Positions 1,205 through 8,326 of a DNA stretch of 34,461 bases are shown piece by piece (positions within the stretch are counted from its first letter, which is position 1; the number at the start of each line of letters is the position of its first letter). The stretch is from a virus, in the UHGV virus genome UHGV-1142857, one strand, 5' to 3'. Below the pieces are notes generated by a model. That model ran no database searches and was not told the DNA's origin. It saw only the letters and a list, made by a program, of their open reading frames with translations. A program made the position numbers and the translations under genes.

Positions 1205-2164
1205 GTGGATATCGTTTTATCAAGAATATTAAAATTAAAATCTGAGAAGAAAATCTCAGATACCCAATTTACAAAAGATTTGCACTTTTATAGTTCGATT
1301 GTTTCCGAATGGAAAAATGGAAGTTCTAAATCTTATATGAGGCATCTACCCAAGATTGCCGATTACTTCGGCACAACGGTTGATGCAATTCTTAATGGAG
1401 AAACTAATAAACAAGAGACGTCCAGGAAAAAATCCATTACGACTATGGATACAGTAAGCCGAATTTGTGAATTGATGAATAAAAATAATATTAAAGATGC
1501 AGAGTTAGAGCGCTCCCTAGGTATTGGGAACAAAATCGTTTATGGGTGGAAAAAAGGTCGTTCAAAATCTTATATGGATTACCTTCCTCAGTTAGCAAAA
1601 ATTTTCCATGTGTCCGTTACCTATCTTTTGTGCTTAACTGATTACCCAAATGAACTTCCATCCACAATGGGAATCTTAAATGATCATATTTCAGAAGAAC
1701 CCAAATATCTTCGTGAGGAAACATTGGATCACCCACCTGGTCTTTCTTTCCAGACTTTTCCTCTTAGCGAGAGCACGGTGGCAATGATCCCCATCGTTTC
1801 CACGGTGCGCGCCGGCTGGAATGGTGTGCCGGAACCTGTCTATGATGGGATGATGGCGGTCTATGATCAGAAAAACCCCCAAGAATATGTCTGGATGAAG
1901 GTTGAGGGAGATAGTATGGAACCTTATATTATGGAGGGGGATTTTGTTCTGGTTCATATCCAGCCTACTGCCGAAAACGGGGAACTTGTCGTTGCCATGC
2001 TGGACGGCGAGGAAGGTACGGTTAAAAAATTTCAACGTAATAAAAGTGGCGTGATGTTGGTTCCTTATAATTCAAAATGCCCAACTGTCTTTGTGCCGAA
2101 TGACCGACTGGATGCTTTTTTAATCTATGGGGTTGTAAAAAAATCCATGAGAAATTATACATAA
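1205..2164 (+). CDS. CI-like phage repressor: tandem XRE-type HTH domains plus C-terminal S24 (LexA-like) peptidase domain
   Basis: GTG start 10 nt after TAGGAG. Two HTH-like blocks: ILKLKSEKKISDTQFTKDL...SIVSEWKNG and ICELMNKNNIKDAELERSLGIGNKIVYGWKKG. Ala-Gly cleavage-like site at RAGW. GDSM Ser nucleophile with Lys in TVKKF about 37 aa later. Confidence 0.85.
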   Translation: MDIVLSRILKLKSEKKISDTQFTKDLHFYSSIVSEWKNGSSKSYMRHLPKIADYFGTTVDAILNGETNKQETSRKKSITTMDTVSRICELMNKNNIKDAELERSLGIGNKIVYGWKKGRSKSYMDYLPQLAKIFHVSVTYLLCLTDYPNELPSTMGILNDHISEEPKYLREETLDHPPGLSFQTFPLSESTVAMIPIVSTVRAGWNGVPEPVYDGMMAVYDQKNPQEYVWMKVEGDSMEPYIMEGDFVLVHIQPTAENGELVVAMLDGEEGTVKKFQRNKSGVMLVPYNSKCPTVFVPNDRLDAFLIYGVVKKSMRNYT

Positions 2165-2328: not shown

Positions 2329-2904
2329 ATGAGTAAAAAAAAGAAAACCGTTGTTATTGTTGTTTCGATTATTCTGGTTTTAATTCTTGTTTATGTGATA
2401 TGTGCTCTTACTGGAAATTTGCAGCCTGCTGATGAAAATGATTCAAAGCCAGAAGCAACCACTTCTCCGTTACCGTCTGGAACGCTTGCATCGTATGGTT
2501 GGAACCCCGCTGATTCTAGTAATGAAATCGGAACAACTGCTCGAGCAGATGAAATTCAATTAAAAGGCATAAACGATGCAAAGAACATTACAAAAGATGA
2601 TGCTGCTATAGTTTGGGATCAGGGTATTCAATATTTAAAGGAGCATTCCAGCAATTTCTTTGAAAGTACAGAGATTATGGAACAATCTTTATATTATGGA
2701 AGTTTTATATGCAAATATATAGAAGAAAACGCAGCAGCCGACAACGCTTCACAGTTACCTGATTCGACCCGTGCGGCATATGACGGTGCGCAGCATTCTG
2801 TTCAAGCTATTAAGTATGTATATAGAGGTTCCCAGTCCATAGAAGATGAGGTAACTCAATTTGATCTAAAAGAAGCCCAGGAAAATCTGGCAAAATTCAA
2901 ATAG
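2329..2904 (+). CDS. membrane-anchored protein (N-terminal TM helix, extracytoplasmic domain); moron
   Basis: MSKKKKTVVIVVSIILVLILVYVICAL is a signal anchor. Markedly AT-rich compared with the rest of the window. Sits between repressor and integrase. Confidence 0.6.
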   Translation: MSKKKKTVVIVVSIILVLILVYVICALTGNLQPADENDSKPEATTSPLPSGTLASYGWNPADSSNEIGTTARADEIQLKGINDAKNITKDDAAIVWDQGIQYLKEHSSNFFESTEIMEQSLYYGSFICKYIEENAAADNASQLPDSTRAAYDGAQHSVQAIKYVYRGSQSIEDEVTQFDLKEAQENLAKFK

Positions 2905-2939: not shown

Positions 2940-3578
2940 ATGGCCTTTTTGGATTTTTTTGCAAAAAAAGAACCGCAAAAAAAATATGGCGAAGTTAATG
3001 ATTTTTCTAATGGTGATTTTTGCTTAAAACTCATTTCAGAAAACTATGGGGTAGAAAATCCAGATCGGTATGAAATATTTGAGAAAGTACTTAACAAGTC
3101 AAAACAATATAGTGATCCGCTACATATTTTAGCTTGTGCATATGCCTGTCACTACTCTAAGGCTGAATTAAGAATGGATGCTATATCATATTTTGAAAAG
3201 TATTTAGAGAATCCAGTACCATGTAAAAATCCCCTATTCAATATTTCTCATGTGTATAGAGATTTAGGAAAAGATTATGAGGCAGAATATAATTTTAATT
3301 CTGCCGAAAAATGTTATAAAAACGCAATTTTGAAAAACGGGTATAGAAATCATGTTCATCCAATCAGCAAGCATCCCAGCTTATCTCCAGAGGAAGTTAT
3401 GCTAGGACGTCTCTATTTAAAAGTTAGTACACAAAAGGCTGTTGAATATTGGGAAAGTTTTACATGCCTCGATGTGTATAGAAGCGATGACCAATTCAGA
3501 AGACGAGTAGATATCGAGTATAAAAATGCTACTGAAAAGCATGCGAAAGGGTATGTTTATAAGCCGCGCAAAAAATAA
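2940..3578 (+). CDS. cytoplasmic TPR-like repeat protein; moron partner of 2329..2904
   Basis: 212 aa, AT-rich. TPR-like helical repeats: DPLHILACAYACHYSKAELRMDAISYFEKYLEN and NISHVYRDLGKDYEAEYNFNSAEKCYKNAILKN. No recognisable catalytic motif. Confidence 0.5.
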   Translation: MAFLDFFAKKEPQKKYGEVNDFSNGDFCLKLISENYGVENPDRYEIFEKVLNKSKQYSDPLHILACAYACHYSKAELRMDAISYFEKYLENPVPCKNPLFNISHVYRDLGKDYEAEYNFNSAEKCYKNAILKNGYRNHVHPISKHPSLSPEEVMLGRLYLKVSTQKAVEYWESFTCLDVYRSDDQFRRRVDIEYKNATEKHAKGYVYKPRKK

Positions 3579-3792: not shown

Positions 3793-4923
3793 ATGCCCTT
3801 CTATAAAATGAACGGAAAACGCGACGGGAAACAAAAATACCGGGTGCGCATCAACTATCTGGACAGCGCCGGAAAGCCGCACCAGATTGACCGCGTCACC
3901 TATGGTCTGGAAGAGGCAAAGCTCCTGGAGCTTCAGCTCGCAAAGGAAGTCAAGGATGAGGCGCCTGCAAAGCGCATGACCCTTCAACAGCTCTTTGATG
4001 AATATAGTAAGGCCCGGAAAGGCAGTGTGCGGGAATCCACGCTGGATAAGTCGCAGCGAATTTTGAAAGGCCACGTTTTGCCGGATCTTGGTGGAGTGCG
4101 GCTCCATAAGCTGACTACGCCGGTTCTCATGCAGTGGAAGATGGGCATGGAGCAGAAAGGCCTTGCCATAGTAACCCGTCAAAACGCCTATGCGGAATTT
4201 CACATTCTTTTAAATTATGCCTGCCGAATGGAATATTTGCCGAAAAATCCGCTGGATAAGGTTGGAAATTTCCGGGCTTCCGGCGAGATAAAGAAGGAGA
4301 TGCAGTATTACACGGCAGACGAGTTCAAAAAGTTCATTGCCGCCGCCCGTGAGAACGCGGAAAACGCGGATAGAAACGGCGTTTTAGGTGAATGGGATTA
4401 CTATGTATTCTTTGCCATTGCTTTCTATACAGGACTGCGAAAAGGCGAAATTCACGGTCTGGAATGGCGGGATATTGATGGGGCCTATTTGTCCGTCAAG
4501 CGGAGCATCGCCCAAAAGCTCAAGGGAGACGACCGGGAAACCGCGCCGAAAAACAAAAGCTCTATCCGGACACTGCAAATCCCCGTCCCCCTTCTGCGAA
4601 TTTTGGACGAGCACAAGGCAAGATGGAAAGCGGTTCCCGGATTTACAGAAACATATAAGGTATGCGGCGGCGTCCGTCCCCTGCGGGATACCACAATCCA
4701 GCTGCACAACAAAAAGTTTGCCGATATGGCTGGGGTCAAAAAAATCCGCATCCACGACTTCCGGCACTCTCACGCCTCCCTTCTGGCAAATGCAGGGATC
4801 AATATTCAGGAAGTAGCCCGCCGTCTCGGACATTCCCGGATCGAAATGACGTGGAACACCTATTCCCATCTCTATCCAAAAGAAGAGGAAAGGGCTATCA
4901 AAGTACTGGATGAAATCGTTTAA
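3793..4923 (+). CDS. int: tyrosine site-specific integrase
   Basis: 376 aa with an N-terminal arm-binding-like region. C-terminal catalytic signature R...HDFRHSHASLLANAGINIQEVARRLGHSRIEMTWNTYSHLY (R, HxxR, Y). RBS AAAGGAG. Confidence 0.92.
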   Translation: MPFYKMNGKRDGKQKYRVRINYLDSAGKPHQIDRVTYGLEEAKLLELQLAKEVKDEAPAKRMTLQQLFDEYSKARKGSVRESTLDKSQRILKGHVLPDLGGVRLHKLTTPVLMQWKMGMEQKGLAIVTRQNAYAEFHILLNYACRMEYLPKNPLDKVGNFRASGEIKKEMQYYTADEFKKFIAAARENAENADRNGVLGEWDYYVFFAIAFYTGLRKGEIHGLEWRDIDGAYLSVKRSIAQKLKGDDRETAPKNKSSIRTLQIPVPLLRILDEHKARWKAVPGFTETYKVCGGVRPLRDTTIQLHNKKFADMAGVKKIRIHDFRHSHASLLANAGINIQEVARRLGHSRIEMTWNTYSHLYPKEEERAIKVLDEIV

Positions 4924-4972
4924 AAAATGCTTTTTCGCAAATAAATCGTGTAAAAAACGTGTAAGGCAAAAC

Positions 4973-5001
4973 AAAAACCCGCTATTTAAGCGGGTTTTTT
5001 T
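4973..5001 (+). terminator. rho-independent terminator downstream of int (AACCCGC-tatttaa-GCGGGTT plus T7)
   Basis: 7-bp GC stem followed by TTTTTTT. Confidence 0.8.
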
Positions 5002-5183
5002 GGTGTTTGGTGGAGACAGCTGGTGTTATTTTTCATTAAATTTAATATTTGCAACAATTATATAAAGCTGAAAAAGCCGATTATAAACGGGTTTTTCTTA
5101 GTTTTCGTGTGATTACAATCAATCGAAAATATGCTAAATTTGCAAAAAACGTGTAAGAAACGTGTACAGAGCCAAACAAAAAA

Positions 5184-5210
5184 AGAGCCGGATTAAATCC
5201 AGCTCTTTTA
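5184..5210. terminator. bidirectional hairpin terminator (AGAGC-CGGATtaaATCCaG-GCTCT) with T-run on plus and T7-like run on minus
   Basis: Stem with one mismatch. Plus strand is followed by TTTTA. On the minus strand the upstream A-run gives UUUUUUUGUUUGG. Confidence 0.5.
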
Positions 5211-5330
5211 AGTATGCGTCATTGATTTTTTCGACCTAACAGTATAAAATATTCATTGAAAAAGGTGCACGTTTTCGGACTGCACTGGGGGAGTCACTCG
5301 GTGGCTCTCTTTTTGTTGCTCTTTGCCAAA

Positions 5331-5358
5331 TAAAAAAGAGGGACTATGCGATCCCTCT
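5331..5358 (-). terminator. rho-independent terminator of the toxin-antitoxin operon (AGAGGGA-ctatgcga-TCCCTCT; minus strand reads stem then UUUUUUAUUU)
   Basis: The stem overlaps the toxin stop codon. A-run 5332..5337 on plus equals a U-run on the minus transcript. Confidence 0.75.
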
Positions 5359-5684
5359 CATTTTAGCCATTCTGTATCCATCATCATTTGGATTTTCATT
5401 ATATCATAGTTGTTCAGCCGCCCAATTTTCCTGATTAAATCTCTTGCTTCTAATCTAAAAATTTTAGACAGCCTGACTGTCGTTTCTTTCTCCAGCCCGG
5501 CCTCTTTCCAATATTTTATAGGATATTCACCCCATATTCCCGGCCTGGGACCCATTGTCGTTGCTGGTGCTACTGTCGCCACAACATGATCTCGCAGAAA
5601 CACTATCGGTCTTTCCTTTTTCGTATCATTTTCCTCGAATTTTACTGCGGCCCACCAGACCTCCCAGCATCGACTTTTCCCCAT
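5358..5684 (-). CDS. MazF/PemK-family toxin (endoribonuclease-like), translationally coupled to the upstream antitoxin
   Basis: 108 aa. CWEVWWAAVKFEENDTKKERPIVFLRD...VVATVAPATT...TTVRLSKIFRLEARDLIRKIGRLNNYDIMKIQ matches the PemK/MazF pattern (aromatic-rich N-terminus, ERPxLV, T-x-hydrophobic core, C-terminal IG.L...DM..I). ATG lies 0 nt after the antitoxin stop. Confidence 0.65.
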   Translation of the reverse strand: MGKSRCWEVWWAAVKFEENDTKKERPIVFLRDHVVATVAPATTMGPRPGIWGEYPIKYWKEAGLEKETTVRLSKIFRLEARDLIRKIGRLNNYDIMKIQMMMDTEWLK

Positions 5685-6224
5685 TTAATTAAACATATCC
5701 TCCGGCAACACCATACAACCGTCTTTATCTCTGCCAGGAAGAATCTCCTTTTTCGCGATCAATTCATCAAAGGACTGTAATTCACCCTCGCGGTGTGAAA
5801 AATACTCTTTCATTTCCTGCAAGTCTATTACGCTGTTATTTCCCTTTCGATACGCCCTATCCCATGGGCCGCCAGGAACATGCGTCATCGTAGATAAAGC
5901 AGGCGCCGTATACTTGCCGTATTTTCGCGCTACATCAAAAAGAAGGCTTTCCTCTTCATCAGTAAAAACATCCGGATTATAGCCGGGATCGACTTGGGTT
6001 ATTGTGTCTCTGCTATACCTGGCATACTTGCCTCTTGCCTTTTGCGGAACCGGACCATAGTCCCACGCCTGTATTTCATCATCAAACAGAGGGCGTCCCA
6101 GCTTAACTAAGCTCCATCCTTGCGCATAATATAGCATTTTATATAGCTTCATTTGTGTCATATTGTCATCAAATGCAGGTGACACTTCAATGAAAAAATT
6201 TGCCACATCAAACACACTGGCCAA
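5685..6224 (-). CDS. Panacea-domain (DUF4065, SocA/PanA-like) antitoxin
   Basis: Probable TTG start at 6224 after AAGGAGGGAG (the track's longer ORF starts at 6245). Hallmark motifs VFDVANFFIE and MKLYKMLYYAQGWSLVKLGRPLFDDEIQAWDYGPV. C-terminal extension of about 50 aa beyond the domain. Confidence 0.7.
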   Translation of the reverse strand: MASVFDVANFFIEVSPAFDDNMTQMKLYKMLYYAQGWSLVKLGRPLFDDEIQAWDYGPVPQKARGKYARYSRDTITQVDPGYNPDVFTDEEESLLFDVARKYGKYTAPALSTMTHVPGGPWDRAYRKGNNSVIDLQEMKEYFSHREGELQSFDELIAKKEILPGRDKDGCMVLPEDMFN

Positions 6225-6293
6225 TGTACTCCCTCCTTTTCTCATCTTAGTTTCACAAGGCTTTCAAATTTACCCCGGTTAATTCTTATCTAT

Positions 6294-6321
6294 AGTATAC
6301 CCCAAAAACACGTCTTTGCAA
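6294..6321 (-). promoter_or_regulatory. promoter of the antitoxin-toxin operon: TTGCAA, 16-nt spacer, TATACT on the minus strand
   Basis: Reverse complement of about 6316..6321 is TTGCAA and of about 6294..6299 is TATACT. About 60-nt leader to the TTG start. Confidence 0.5.
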
Positions 6322-6439
6322 TGATGTTTTTTTAACATTTATAATTCGTTTACATTCATTTGTATGCACTATTCGCCACTTTTGCGCAACATTCCTTCTT
6401 TTAAGTAGCTTTTTGCTCTATTTTTGTTTCTTTAAATGC

Positions 6440-6470
6440 AAAAAAGAGGGGCCTCATAGCCCCTCTTTTT
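6440..6470. terminator. bidirectional rho-independent terminator after the lysis cassette (AGAGGGGC-ctcata-GCCCCTCT with A-run and T-run flanks)
   Basis: 8-bp GC-rich stem. On the minus transcript the stop of 6470..6763 is followed by stem plus UUUUUUGCAUUU. Confidence 0.8.
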
Positions 6471-6763
6471 CAGATCAAATATGTGATGATATATGTGACG
6501 GCCCCACCGGCCAGGGCGGATAGAAGAATCTGCCATAGGGCGAAGCGCCGCCGGCTCTTTTCCCCCTCCATGGTGTCCAGGCGTTCATCTATACTGTTAA
6601 CCCGCACATTCATCAACTGTAAGGCTTCCGCCATCTCCTGTATGCTTTTTACCATCTTTTCAAAGTTCTTCTGCTGGGTAAAAAGCGTTTTCAGTTCTTC
6701 TTTGTGCGCCGCCAGAGCCGCCTCATGCTCCATCACCTTTGTCGTTAACTGATGTACATCCAT
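6470..6763 (-). CDS. XhlA-like (haemolysin XhlA family) lysis-associated protein: coiled coil plus C-terminal TM helix
   Basis: 97 aa with heptad-rich N-terminus and C-terminal WQILLSALAGGAVTYIITYLI. Sits immediately after the holin. Confidence 0.5.
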   Translation of the reverse strand: MDVHQLTTKVMEHEAALAAHKEELKTLFTQQKNFEKMVKSIQEMAEALQLMNVRVNSIDERLDTMEGEKSRRRFALWQILLSALAGGAVTYIITYLI

Positions 6764-6765
6764 GT

Positions 6766-7047
6766 CTACTCCTTCGGCTTTTCATAGGTCAATGCCTGTT
6801 CGCTGTCCCCCATGCCTTTGGTCGTCGGGTCGGTGAGCACGCCGATAAAGGACAGCACCGCCATCACCACCGTGCCGATAAGATAGGGGTTGCTGAAGAA
6901 GGCCGCAAACACCTCCCCTATGCTGCTCCAGGTGGTCAAATCCTCAAAGCCCAGCCCCAGATACGCCAGGATCGGCGACGCAATCACGCCCACTAGCCCG
7001 ATCCAAAACTGCGGGCTTTTTACCCGTACTTTCCAGTTGATTTTCAT
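6766..7047 (-). CDS. holin (phi LC3 / SPP1-type, Phage_holin_1-like)
   Basis: Start taken at MKINWKVRVKSPQFWIGLVGVIASPILAYLGLG, 13 nt after GGAGGAAAAACA (the track ORF extends 21 codons further). Two or three TM segments and a charged C-terminus. Confidence 0.75.
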   Translation of the reverse strand: MKINWKVRVKSPQFWIGLVGVIASPILAYLGLGFEDLTTWSSIGEVFAAFFSNPYLIGTVVMAVLSFIGVLTDPTTKGMGDSEQALTYEKPKE

Positions 7048-7069
7048 TGTTTTTCCTCCTTTTATCCTT

Positions 7070-8326
7070 TTACCCAAGGGGCACAAGCCACTTGCCGCCC
7101 AACGCGTCAATGGTATTCTCCCCAGCCTTGCCGTCCACGGTCAGCCCTGCCGCCTTCTGGAAGCTCTTAACCGCGCTCTCAGTGTTCTTCCCGAACTCGC
7201 CGTCCGCTCCCGTGCCGCCGCAGGAATACCCTTTAGCAATCAGCGCGCTTTGCAGATTCTTCACATCCGCCCCCTTCATTAAAGGGCTGGTTTTCCTGAG
7301 GATCCGGCTCACACTCCATGTTGTCCCGACAGCTTTCCATTCGCCGCCCAGGGCCTGGGTTGTCTTTTCCCCCACAATCCCGTCCGCCGTCAGTCCCGCG
7401 TCTTTCTGAAAGGCCGTGACTGCGGCTTCCGTGTTGCTGCCATATTCCCCATCGGCTCCGGTATTCCCGCAGGAATAACCCTTCGCAATTAGCGCAGCCT
7501 GCACGTCTCTCACGTCCTCTCCCGTCATGAGGGGGCTGGTCTTTTTCAGCAACCGCCCTACGGTGAAGGAAACCGGGGCGCCCCCGGCAATCCGCGTCAG
7601 ATCGCTCCGATTGCTGATATATCCGTCCTTCCCGTCATAGTCGATCTTGTACCACCCCGATGCGCTCACGCCCTCCAAAAGAAAACTGTCCCCTTTGTGG
7701 GCCACGCCCAGGACCGCCGTTTCCGTGTTGTCCCCGGCCCGCACGTTCACCGAGCCCCCCAGAACCTCCACCATGCCGCCTGCCGGGGAATCTCCTTCAA
7801 TCTCCTCTTTAAAGATGGAGGGCCGCCCATAGGCGTTCCAATAGCCGCTCCCGCTGGCATTCAGGCTCCGCTTGACCACACCGTCATCCCGCCCCTTGGC
7901 TTCGATGACGTTCAGGCTCTCATCCACGATATATCCGATATGATACGCTTTTCCCTTATCCTTGCCCGTCTGGTATACCCGGAACACCCAGTCGCCTTTT
8001 TTCAGTTCACTCCGGGTAAGCGCCGCGCATTTCCCCTTCAGGCCGTTGGCCGTCGTATCCCCGGAAATCCATTTCTTTACGTTATATAAATAGTAGGTAG
8101 CCAGTCCGCCGCAGTCAAAGGCCCGCAGCTTCTCTCCATAGCCCGCTTTCACCTGCTTTTTCCAAAAAGCAATGGCCCGCCGGGCGTTTGCTTCGCTGTC
8201 CTCCATTTTCTGTATCCACGCTTCCGAAATGGTCGTGTGATCCTGCCCCTGGCCGCCCCACACATAGATGCTGTGGTTGGCCGCCTGTTCTTCCAGATAC
8301 GCGATAAATTCACTCAGTTTGCCCAT
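7070..8326 (-). CDS. endolysin: N-terminal NlpC/P60-CHAP-like cysteine peptidase, bacterial SH3 domain, two C-terminal PG_binding_1 repeats
   Basis: 418 aa. Catalytic-type Cys in FDCGGLATYY and His in YHIGYIVDE. SH3b-like GGSVNVRAGDNTETAVLGVAHKGDSFLLEGVSASGWYKIDY. Duplicated LLKKTSPLM.G.DV..LQ.ALIAKGYSCG.TGADGE.G.NTE.AV..FQK.AGLT.DG..GE.T..ALGG module. Confidence 0.88.
   Translation of the reverse strand: MGKLSEFIAYLEEQAANHSIYVWGGQGQDHTTISEAWIQKMEDSEANARRAIAFWKKQVKAGYGEKLRAFDCGGLATYYLYNVKKWISGDTTANGLKGKCAALTRSELKKGDWVFRVYQTGKDKGKAYHIGYIVDESLNVIEAKGRDDGVVKRSLNASGSGYWNAYGRPSIFKEEIEGDSPAGGMVEVLGGSVNVRAGDNTETAVLGVAHKGDSFLLEGVSASGWYKIDYDGKDGYISNRSDLTRIAGGAPVSFTVGRLLKKTSPLMTGEDVRDVQAALIAKGYSCGNTGADGEYGSNTEAAVTAFQKDAGLTADGIVGEKTTQALGGEWKAVGTTWSVSRILRKTSPLMKGADVKNLQSALIAKGYSCGGTGADGEFGKNTESAVKSFQKAAGLTVDGKAGENTIDALGGKWLVPLG

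Follow-up and report, generated by a model that had tools for sequence, protein, structure and literature searches.

A Panacea-domain antitoxin candidate coupled to a MazF/PemK-fold toxin candidate near the attachment site of a temperate gut phage genome

Do two short genes flanked by the lysis genes and the integrase gene of a temperate siphovirus-like phage genome (~34 kb) form a toxin-antitoxin unit, to which known type would such a unit belong, and is the combination of its two protein families new? The window analyzed here is the entire 34,461-nucleotide stretch of UHGV virus genome UHGV-1142857. Its initial annotation, made from the letters alone, described a self-contained module of a Panacea-domain (DUF4065) antitoxin and a MazF/PemK-like toxin next to the phage attachment site. 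We favor, with an estimated probability of about 0.8, a type II PanAT cassette that forms an accessory transcription unit of its own (a "moron") close to the attachment site of a temperate phage infecting gut bacteria. The earlier reading was right on the identity and architecture of the pair and wrong on its novelty.

Both open reading frames are present on the minus strand as annotated, head to tail with the antitoxin gene first, and the TAA stop of panA (5685..5687) directly abuts the panT ATG at 5684, which confirms the described gene order and stop-to-start abutment. For panA, a TTG start at 6224 was adopted; the in-frame alternative ATG at 6245 is without a ribosome-binding site, and the alignment of homologues, which begin 1-3 residues from the TTG start, supports this choice, the resulting 179-aa form being also the one selected by most gene callers on related contigs. 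The cassette and its signals are as follows.

5685..6224 (TAA included), minus strand: panA, 179-aa Panacea (DUF4065) antitoxin candidate
5358..5684, minus strand: panT, 108-aa MazF/PemK-fold toxin candidate, predicted endoribonuclease
6231..6236, minus strand: Shine-Dalgarno sequence GGAGGG, 6 nt 5' of the panA TTG start, read from the sequence
6294..6321, minus strand: promoter-like site, -35 TTGCAA (6321..6316), 16-nt spacer, -10 TATACT (6299..6294)
6304..6333: imperfect palindrome with 18-nt arms, overlapping the -35 of the panA promoter-like site
6440..6471, minus strand: upstream terminator hairpin with U-run, -22.1 kcal/mol, z = -5.4, ending the lysis operon
5328..5359 (hairpin 5336..5359), minus strand: cassette intrinsic terminator, 9-bp stem and U-run, -13.1 kcal/mol, z = -2.8
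5181..5209, minus strand: second strong hairpin with U-run, -17.1 kcal/mol, z = -6.7, 3' of the cassette, within the arm next to att

The claim that the pair has its own promoter stands in part: the hexamers TTGCAA and TATACT are indeed present with a 16-nt spacer, match 9 of 12 consensus positions in a consensus scan and are invariant in seven related phage contigs, but promoter-type sites are not enriched in this region (five found vs. 3.9 expected from shuffled sequence). Because such sites are as common in shuffled sequence, the element at 6294..6321 is a plausible, unproven promoter of the cassette. An operator search 5' of panA returned the single imperfect palindrome over the -35 and nothing else. 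The terminators reported on both sides of the cassette are real (hairpins 6440..6471 and 5336..5359). The upstream one, whose U-run pairs as part of the stem and for this reason escaped the consensus scan, shields the cassette from late transcription, and the downstream one overlaps the panT stop codon. An Rfam search of positions 4800..6600 yielded sub-threshold matches only, driven by the terminator hairpins.

The surrounding phage genes and the attachment site place this unit within the genome.

7070..8326: endolysin (NlpC/P60-SH3-PG_binding), transcribed ahead of the cassette
6766..7110: holin, transcribed ahead of the cassette
6470..6763: 97-aa coiled-coil "hemolysin"-type protein, transcribed ahead of the cassette
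3793..4923, opposite strand to the cassette: tyrosine integrase, on the downstream side
1205..2164: HTH-S24 repressor, on the downstream side of the cassette
5008..5016, minus strand: approximate attP crossover TCTCCACCA, the last sequence in common with the integrated prophage before the host flank

The attP position was derived by aligning the window and contigs of the phage form to a 90-kb contig (L002) that carries an integrated prophage and provides one junction, at which similarity to the phage form stops and beyond which host genes are found. As similarity ends at 5008..5016, the cassette lies ~340 nt from the inferred crossover, and this one integrated copy supports the description of the pair as "next to attP". 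No tRNA was found at the attachment site.

The second gene of the cassette encodes a protein whose fold is assigned by sequence profiles and a structural model. PanT matches Pfam PemK_toxin (PF02452) over residues 7-99 of 108 with a modest score of 30.1 bits (gathering cut-off 23.1), and it matches phrog_1936, a "MazF-like growth inhibitor", at E = 1.6e-11. A single-sequence search of the PDB found no chain. An exhaustive search defined a PanT family of 379 cluster representatives, and a profile of 91 PanT relatives retrieved from the PDB full-length MazF/EndoA/PemK chains only (E from 1.4e-6), with no other match below E = 0.1. The AlphaFold model (pLDDT 87.5) contains six strands and a helix at residues 92-106, and each of the 50 matches listed by Foldseek against the PDB was a MazF-family chain (probability 1.00, TM 0.66-0.76). 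Among the 91 relatives, residues R25, P26, and T42 vary little or not at all; in an alignment with MazF of S. aureus and M. tuberculosis, R25-P26 falls on the RP motif and T42 on the catalytic Thr in (I)T(S/G). We take R25 and T42 to correspond to the catalytic R25 and T48 of B. subtilis MazF. The MazF/PemK fold annotated at 5358..5684 is thus upheld by the Pfam and PHROG matches, by the profile of relatives and by the structural model, and profile searches, named in the annotation as a possible source of a non-MazF assignment, lead to MazF/EndoA/PemK only. PanT is a predicted endoribonuclease of this fold, whose RNase activity and toxicity we infer from sequence and model. An identical protein is already present in GenBank as "MAG TPA: endoribonuclease [Caudoviricetes sp.]", and no defence-system model of PADLOC matches either PanA or PanT.

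For the upstream gene, the two strings annotated as SocA/PanA hallmarks, VFDVANFF and KLYKMLYYAQGW, were confirmed in the translation of 5685..6224, and its assignment to the Panacea family is supported by a score of 70.3 bits against Pfam SocA_Panacea (PF13274; curated cut-off 25.7). PanA also matches phrog_1281, an uncharacterised PHROG, at E = 3.6e-43, and the same sequence is deposited in GenBank under the label "hypothetical protein". The AlphaFold model has a mean pLDDT of 91.7 and is confident to about residue 150. A single-sequence PDB search gave chance matches only, and the fold search with the model gave no significant match among solved structures; as no solved Panacea-like structure was recovered in the fold search, the Panacea assignment therefore rests on sequence. 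The protein matches Panacea only and has no N-terminal DNA-binding domain. Since its core is Panacea and not an AbrB/SpoVT or RHH DNA-binding domain, no autorepressor is evident. As a separate observation, PanA, without a DNA-binding domain, offers no explanation for an autoregulation of the cassette.

The initial annotation considered a MazF-type partner of Panacea to be undescribed. Such partners were published and validated in 2022: PemK is named among the known toxin domains adjoining DUF4065/Panacea, and clusters T5, T6, and T25 of Dataset S1 are of the EndoA/PemK/MazF type, in antitoxin-then-toxin order (Kurata et al. 2022, PNAS 119:e2102212119, PMC8832971). Two of these pairs, from Bifidobacterium ruminantium (T25) and P. 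moraviensis (T6), were validated as protein-synthesis-inhibiting toxin-antitoxin systems, the T25 toxin being toxic and neutralised (PMC8832971). In a related PanA-mRNase pair, from C. cadaveris, the toxin was toxic and no neutralisation was obtained in E. coli (PMC8832971). The T25 listing also includes Megasphaera micronuciformis F0359, with an 8-nt gene overlap (PMC8832971). The locus from M. micronuciformis F0359 in our set (L017) has the same 8-nt overlap if its second gene is taken to start at the ATG at 3042, so it is most likely the listed pair, and it aligns with the window pair over the full length, tail included, at 37% identity for the toxin and 41% for PanA. Being homologous to this locus, the window pair would probably belong to T25, a published cluster with a verified representative, a placement made via homology to L017. 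Members of T25 including the B. ruminantium pair share with the window a standalone Panacea protein, lacking an N-terminal domain, encoded upstream of a PemK/MazF toxin with abutting or overlapping genes; they differ in that identity is only 30-45% and that the window copy is phage-borne, the validated B. ruminantium pair being flagged "NotPhage" (PMC8832971).

A comparison with canonical MazEF, PemIK, and EndoA-EndoAI systems reveals a common toxin fold, common catalytic Arg/Thr positions and the same antitoxin-first order. MazEF-type antitoxins also resemble PanA in that their C-terminal part is flexible and has many acidic and hydrophobic residues; in MazE, this part blocks the groove of MazF. 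The core of the window antitoxin, in contrast, is Panacea and not an AbrB/SpoVT or RHH domain. A canonical MazEF identity was ruled out, since the upstream protein matches only Panacea, which leaves the pair without a MazE-type DNA-binding antitoxin, and since the profile of the PanA tail described below finds no MazE chain.

What distinguishes the PanA proteins linked to this toxin family is an extension that follows the Panacea core.

5688..5786 (residues ~147-179), minus strand: PanA C-terminal tail, ...ELQSFDELIAKKEILPGRDKDGCMVLPEDMFN, proposed toxin-specific neutralising element

The extension had been annotated as about 50 aa long; it is corrected here to ~32 aa based on two lines of evidence, namely the ends of tail-less PanAs, which stop ~3 residues past the position matching residue 146 (the last core helix), and the AlphaFold confidence, which drops from >93 to 82, 66, and 61 over the last three 10-residue blocks. 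In PanAs linked to the PanT family, the tail carries a conserved motif, F…G-x-RD-x-x-G-x-x-VLP-x-E-W-D-D, with the last part also occurring as [DE]D; the window version reads …SFDELIAKKEILPGRDKDGCMVLPEDMFN and ends in EDMFN, EWDD being the commoner ending. A set of 80 genome loci was gathered by PanA alignment, PanT-family toxins were detected by profile HMM, and the association was tested in the direction from PanA to toxin. A member of the PanT family lies next to PanA in 14 of 17 tailed loci vs. none of 63 tail-less loci, which corresponds to a Fisher p of 4.5e-13 with toxin fragments included and 1.2e-9 for intact toxins only, these loci being not phylogenetically independent. This co-occurrence suggests that the tail is probably a toxin-specific neutralising element, and it points, together with the flexible and acidic/hydrophobic-rich character of the tail, to the part of PanA that would contact the toxin.

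A search of the PDB with the tail profile gave no meaningful match to MazE or any solved chain, and there is therefore no sequence-level link to MazE. A published analogy is offered by the C. doosanense PanA(Phd-C)-Doc pair, in which the appended Phd-C alone neutralises the toxin (NetFlax; Ernits et al. 2023, PMC10440598). With other toxins, Panacea carries an appended Phd-C, PAD1, or ZBD element; neutralisation by linear elements attached to Panacea was demonstrated for such toxins, and the Panacea core of these modular PanAs was proposed as a sensor (PMC10440598). Both the C. doosanense and the window PanA combine a Panacea core with a short appended element specific to one toxin type, although the toxin is a Doc kinase in the former and a MazF RNase in the latter, the appended elements differ, and the role of the window tail is a predicted one. 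A term search of the main text of PMC8832971 and of PMC10440598 found no discussion of the PemK-linked PanA tail. A natural "tail-only antitoxin" in Geobacillus phage GR1 was considered and rejected, as the 41-aa ORF upstream of its toxin is unlike the PanA tail.

The initial annotation suggested a search for the same pairing elsewhere, and this search was successful: the pairing was found at 11 intact and three degraded genome loci, at 30-45% identity, and is conserved beyond this phage group. Within the group, the exact PanT sequence is intact beside panA on 24 of 24 contigs read (the protein index gives 51 contigs), and in each of the eight places shown the pair has the lysis genes on one side and the integrase or att end on the other. 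The cassette with its upstream region is ~98% identical or better across contigs with differing tail-fibre and immunity modules; on one contig (L005), the integrase module also differs and the cassette is kept. In IMG/VR, it was found on a single contig, identical to L001. The closest non-identical relatives of the window pair are at 40-50% identity. Across more distant loci, PanT homologues at 30-42% identity come after PanA relatives at 33-45% identity, the genes overlapping or abutting.

The hosts of tailed-PanA loci include Lachnospiraceae, Oscillospiraceae, Christensenellales, Veillonellaceae, Bulleidia, a spirochaete, and gut methanogens; the pairing is seen in Bacillota, in a spirochaete and in methanogens. 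An intact toxin follows PanA directly at 11 of the 17 tailed genome loci, while three have truncated or frameshifted remnants and three have none; three further distinct metagenome pairs have an intact toxin and one has a truncated toxin. Toxin fragments beside an intact tailed PanA are found at L015, L018, L020, and L028, and the toxin is missing at L023, L024, and L029. Among the archaea, the Methanomassiliicoccus toxin is intact and those of Methanocorpusculum and of a Methanomassiliicoccaceae genome are degraded. Searches of a cultured-phage collection (50,697 deposited phage records) gave neither a nucleotide match to the cassette nor an equivalent pair. In these records, PanT has one weak match only, in Geobacillus phage GR1, where the small upstream gene is a different one; 162 of the records carry Panacea proteins, and those listed match PanA over the core only.

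The frequent truncation, frameshifting or loss of the toxin beside an intact tailed PanA at other loci is what could be expected if the cassette were decaying or neutral cargo without current toxin-antitoxin activity. We consider this improbable for the window, given that both genes are intact on all 24 contigs read of this phage group and that the cassette and its regulatory flanks remain ~98% identical or better where other modules differ. A marginally less probable alternative concerns the mode of action of PanA, which could serve as a SocA-like adaptor handing PanT over to a protease such as ClpXP, and not as a stoichiometric inhibitor. Panacea is the SocA domain, shared with the type VI SocAB system of Caulobacter, and PanA has a partial match to NCBIfam SocA_antitoxin (NF047745; 63.1 bits, E = 2.6e-17). 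This score is, however, far under the equivalog cut-off of 190, and PanT has a MazF fold and is unrelated to SocB, so that identity with SocAB itself was ruled out. Moreover, published PanAs form stable complexes with their toxins, as expected of type II systems (PMC8832971), and a toxin-specific tail fits direct binding, which is probably the mechanism in the window.

The least probable of these alternatives, to which we attach very little weight, retains the MazF/CcdB fold of PanT and replaces its activity: as MazF and CcdB share one fold, and as CcdB appears below the MazF matches in the HHpred lists for related clusters (PMC8832971 dataset), PanT could poison gyrase as CcdB does, or be a binding protein without catalytic activity. 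The profile search and all 50 listed fold matches nevertheless lead to RNases of the MazF type and never to CcdB, the 91 relatives show hardly any variation at the catalytic Arg and Thr positions, and the validated T25 representative inhibits translation.

In the favored type II reading, panA and panT would be expressed on one transcript whose promoter follows the terminator of the lysis operon, and their translation would probably be coupled, as the panA stop abuts the panT ATG. Free PanT would act as a MazF/PemK-fold endoribonuclease that cleaves RNA and stops translation, and PanA would bind and neutralise it. Neutralisation would most likely occur via insertion of the flexible acidic/hydrophobic tail into the substrate groove of the PanT dimer, by analogy with MazE tails and with the Phd-C of C. 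doosanense PanA, while the globular Panacea core would serve as a scaffold or as a sensor. The pair may act in a lysogen upon loss or inactivation of PanA, a role in superinfection defence or prophage stabilisation that would suit a terminator-insulated accessory unit located at the att end and expressed in the lysogen. A more far-reaching version, which we regard as tentative and rather doubtful as a whole, would treat the tail as an undescribed linear anti-PemK/MazF element, with a function like that of Phd-C or the C-terminus of MazE, and the core as a sensor that frees the RNase on superinfection, the cassette then representing an abortive-infection system spreading among gut bacteria and methanogenic archaea.

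Overall, the published PanA-PemK/MazF group gains with the window pair a member that is carried by a phage and divergent in sequence. By itself, the cassette is an ordinary accessory unit of a temperate gut phage, and the new points are modest ones: a phage-borne divergent version and the rule that links tail and toxin. This rule is testable in the form that presence of the tail predicts the presence of a PemK-type partner. If the tail indeed neutralises the toxin, the model of a Panacea core plus a swappable linear neutraliser would reach the commonest RNase toxin fold, and the pair would offer a way to study which signal the Panacea core senses.

The repressor-integrase slot of the phage genome under study and the surroundings of its panAT cassette (encoding the candidate Panacea antitoxin PanA and its candidate PemK/MazF-type toxin partner) contain the following features:

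2329..2904 (+), ORF of 191 aa, between repressor and integrase
2940..3578 (+), ORF of 212 aa, between repressor and integrase
6304..6333, imperfect palindrome (18-nt arms, 83% complementary), overlapping the -35 element of the panAT promoter candidate
6470..6763 (-), 97-aa protein, between holin and panAT cassette

Searches of Pfam, PHROGs and PADLOC returned zero matches for the two ORFs between repressor and integrase. A comparison of related phages revealed a SNIPE/T5orf172 nuclease in the same position in two contigs (L001 and L003), HicA with a partner in L005, an HSDR_N protein in L008 and still other cargo in L004 and L007. In this phage group the position resembles a slot for exchangeable accessory or defence genes.

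Upstream of the cassette, the 97-aa product combines a coiled coil at its N-terminal end with a hydrophobic C-terminus and has hits to PHROG families annotated as "hemolysin" (phrog_937, E = 2e-7). It probably acts in lysis as an XhlA-like accessory protein. The palindrome could serve as an operator, although a domain search of PanA revealed no recognisable DNA-binding domain.

In the attachment-site region, the att-proximal arm (~5040..5140, read on the minus strand) is wholly unlike those of L001, L002 and L004 for ~120 nt, with near-identical flanks (alignment A5, columns 225-345); as judged from this alignment, the divergent stretch is a small replacement within the attP arm. A second sequence resembling the terminator beside the integrase of the phage under study (…AAACCCACTGTTAAGCGGGTTTTTGTTTTGCCTTACACG…) is observed at 7040..7100 of L002, ~370 nt past the point where the integrated prophage of this contig meets host DNA, and may be left over from a prophage that was inserted there earlier or in tandem.

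In Moraxella osloensis and Psychrobacter, PanA bears a C-terminal extension of ~40 aa, unlike the tail of the phage protein, and is followed by a conserved protein that differs from the phage toxin family:

L032 3065..3454 and L090 3053..3427, ~125-130-aa protein (…LWHYHIGIP…), after PanA

This pair is another tail-and-toxin combination, with a putative toxin role for the conserved protein.

The clade to which the phage panA belongs also has tailed members in methanogenic archaea of the gut (Methanocorpusculum, Methanomassiliicoccaceae and Methanomassiliicoccus), where the adjacent toxin is either intact (L026) or truncated or frameshifted (L018, L020 and L028), a pattern suggestive of transfer between domains of life and subsequent decay of the toxin. 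Among bacterial loci, an intact tailed PanA is accompanied by a truncated toxin in L015, and the toxin is lost in L023, L024 and L029. Such orphan tailed PanAs could serve as anti-addiction or anti-defence genes.
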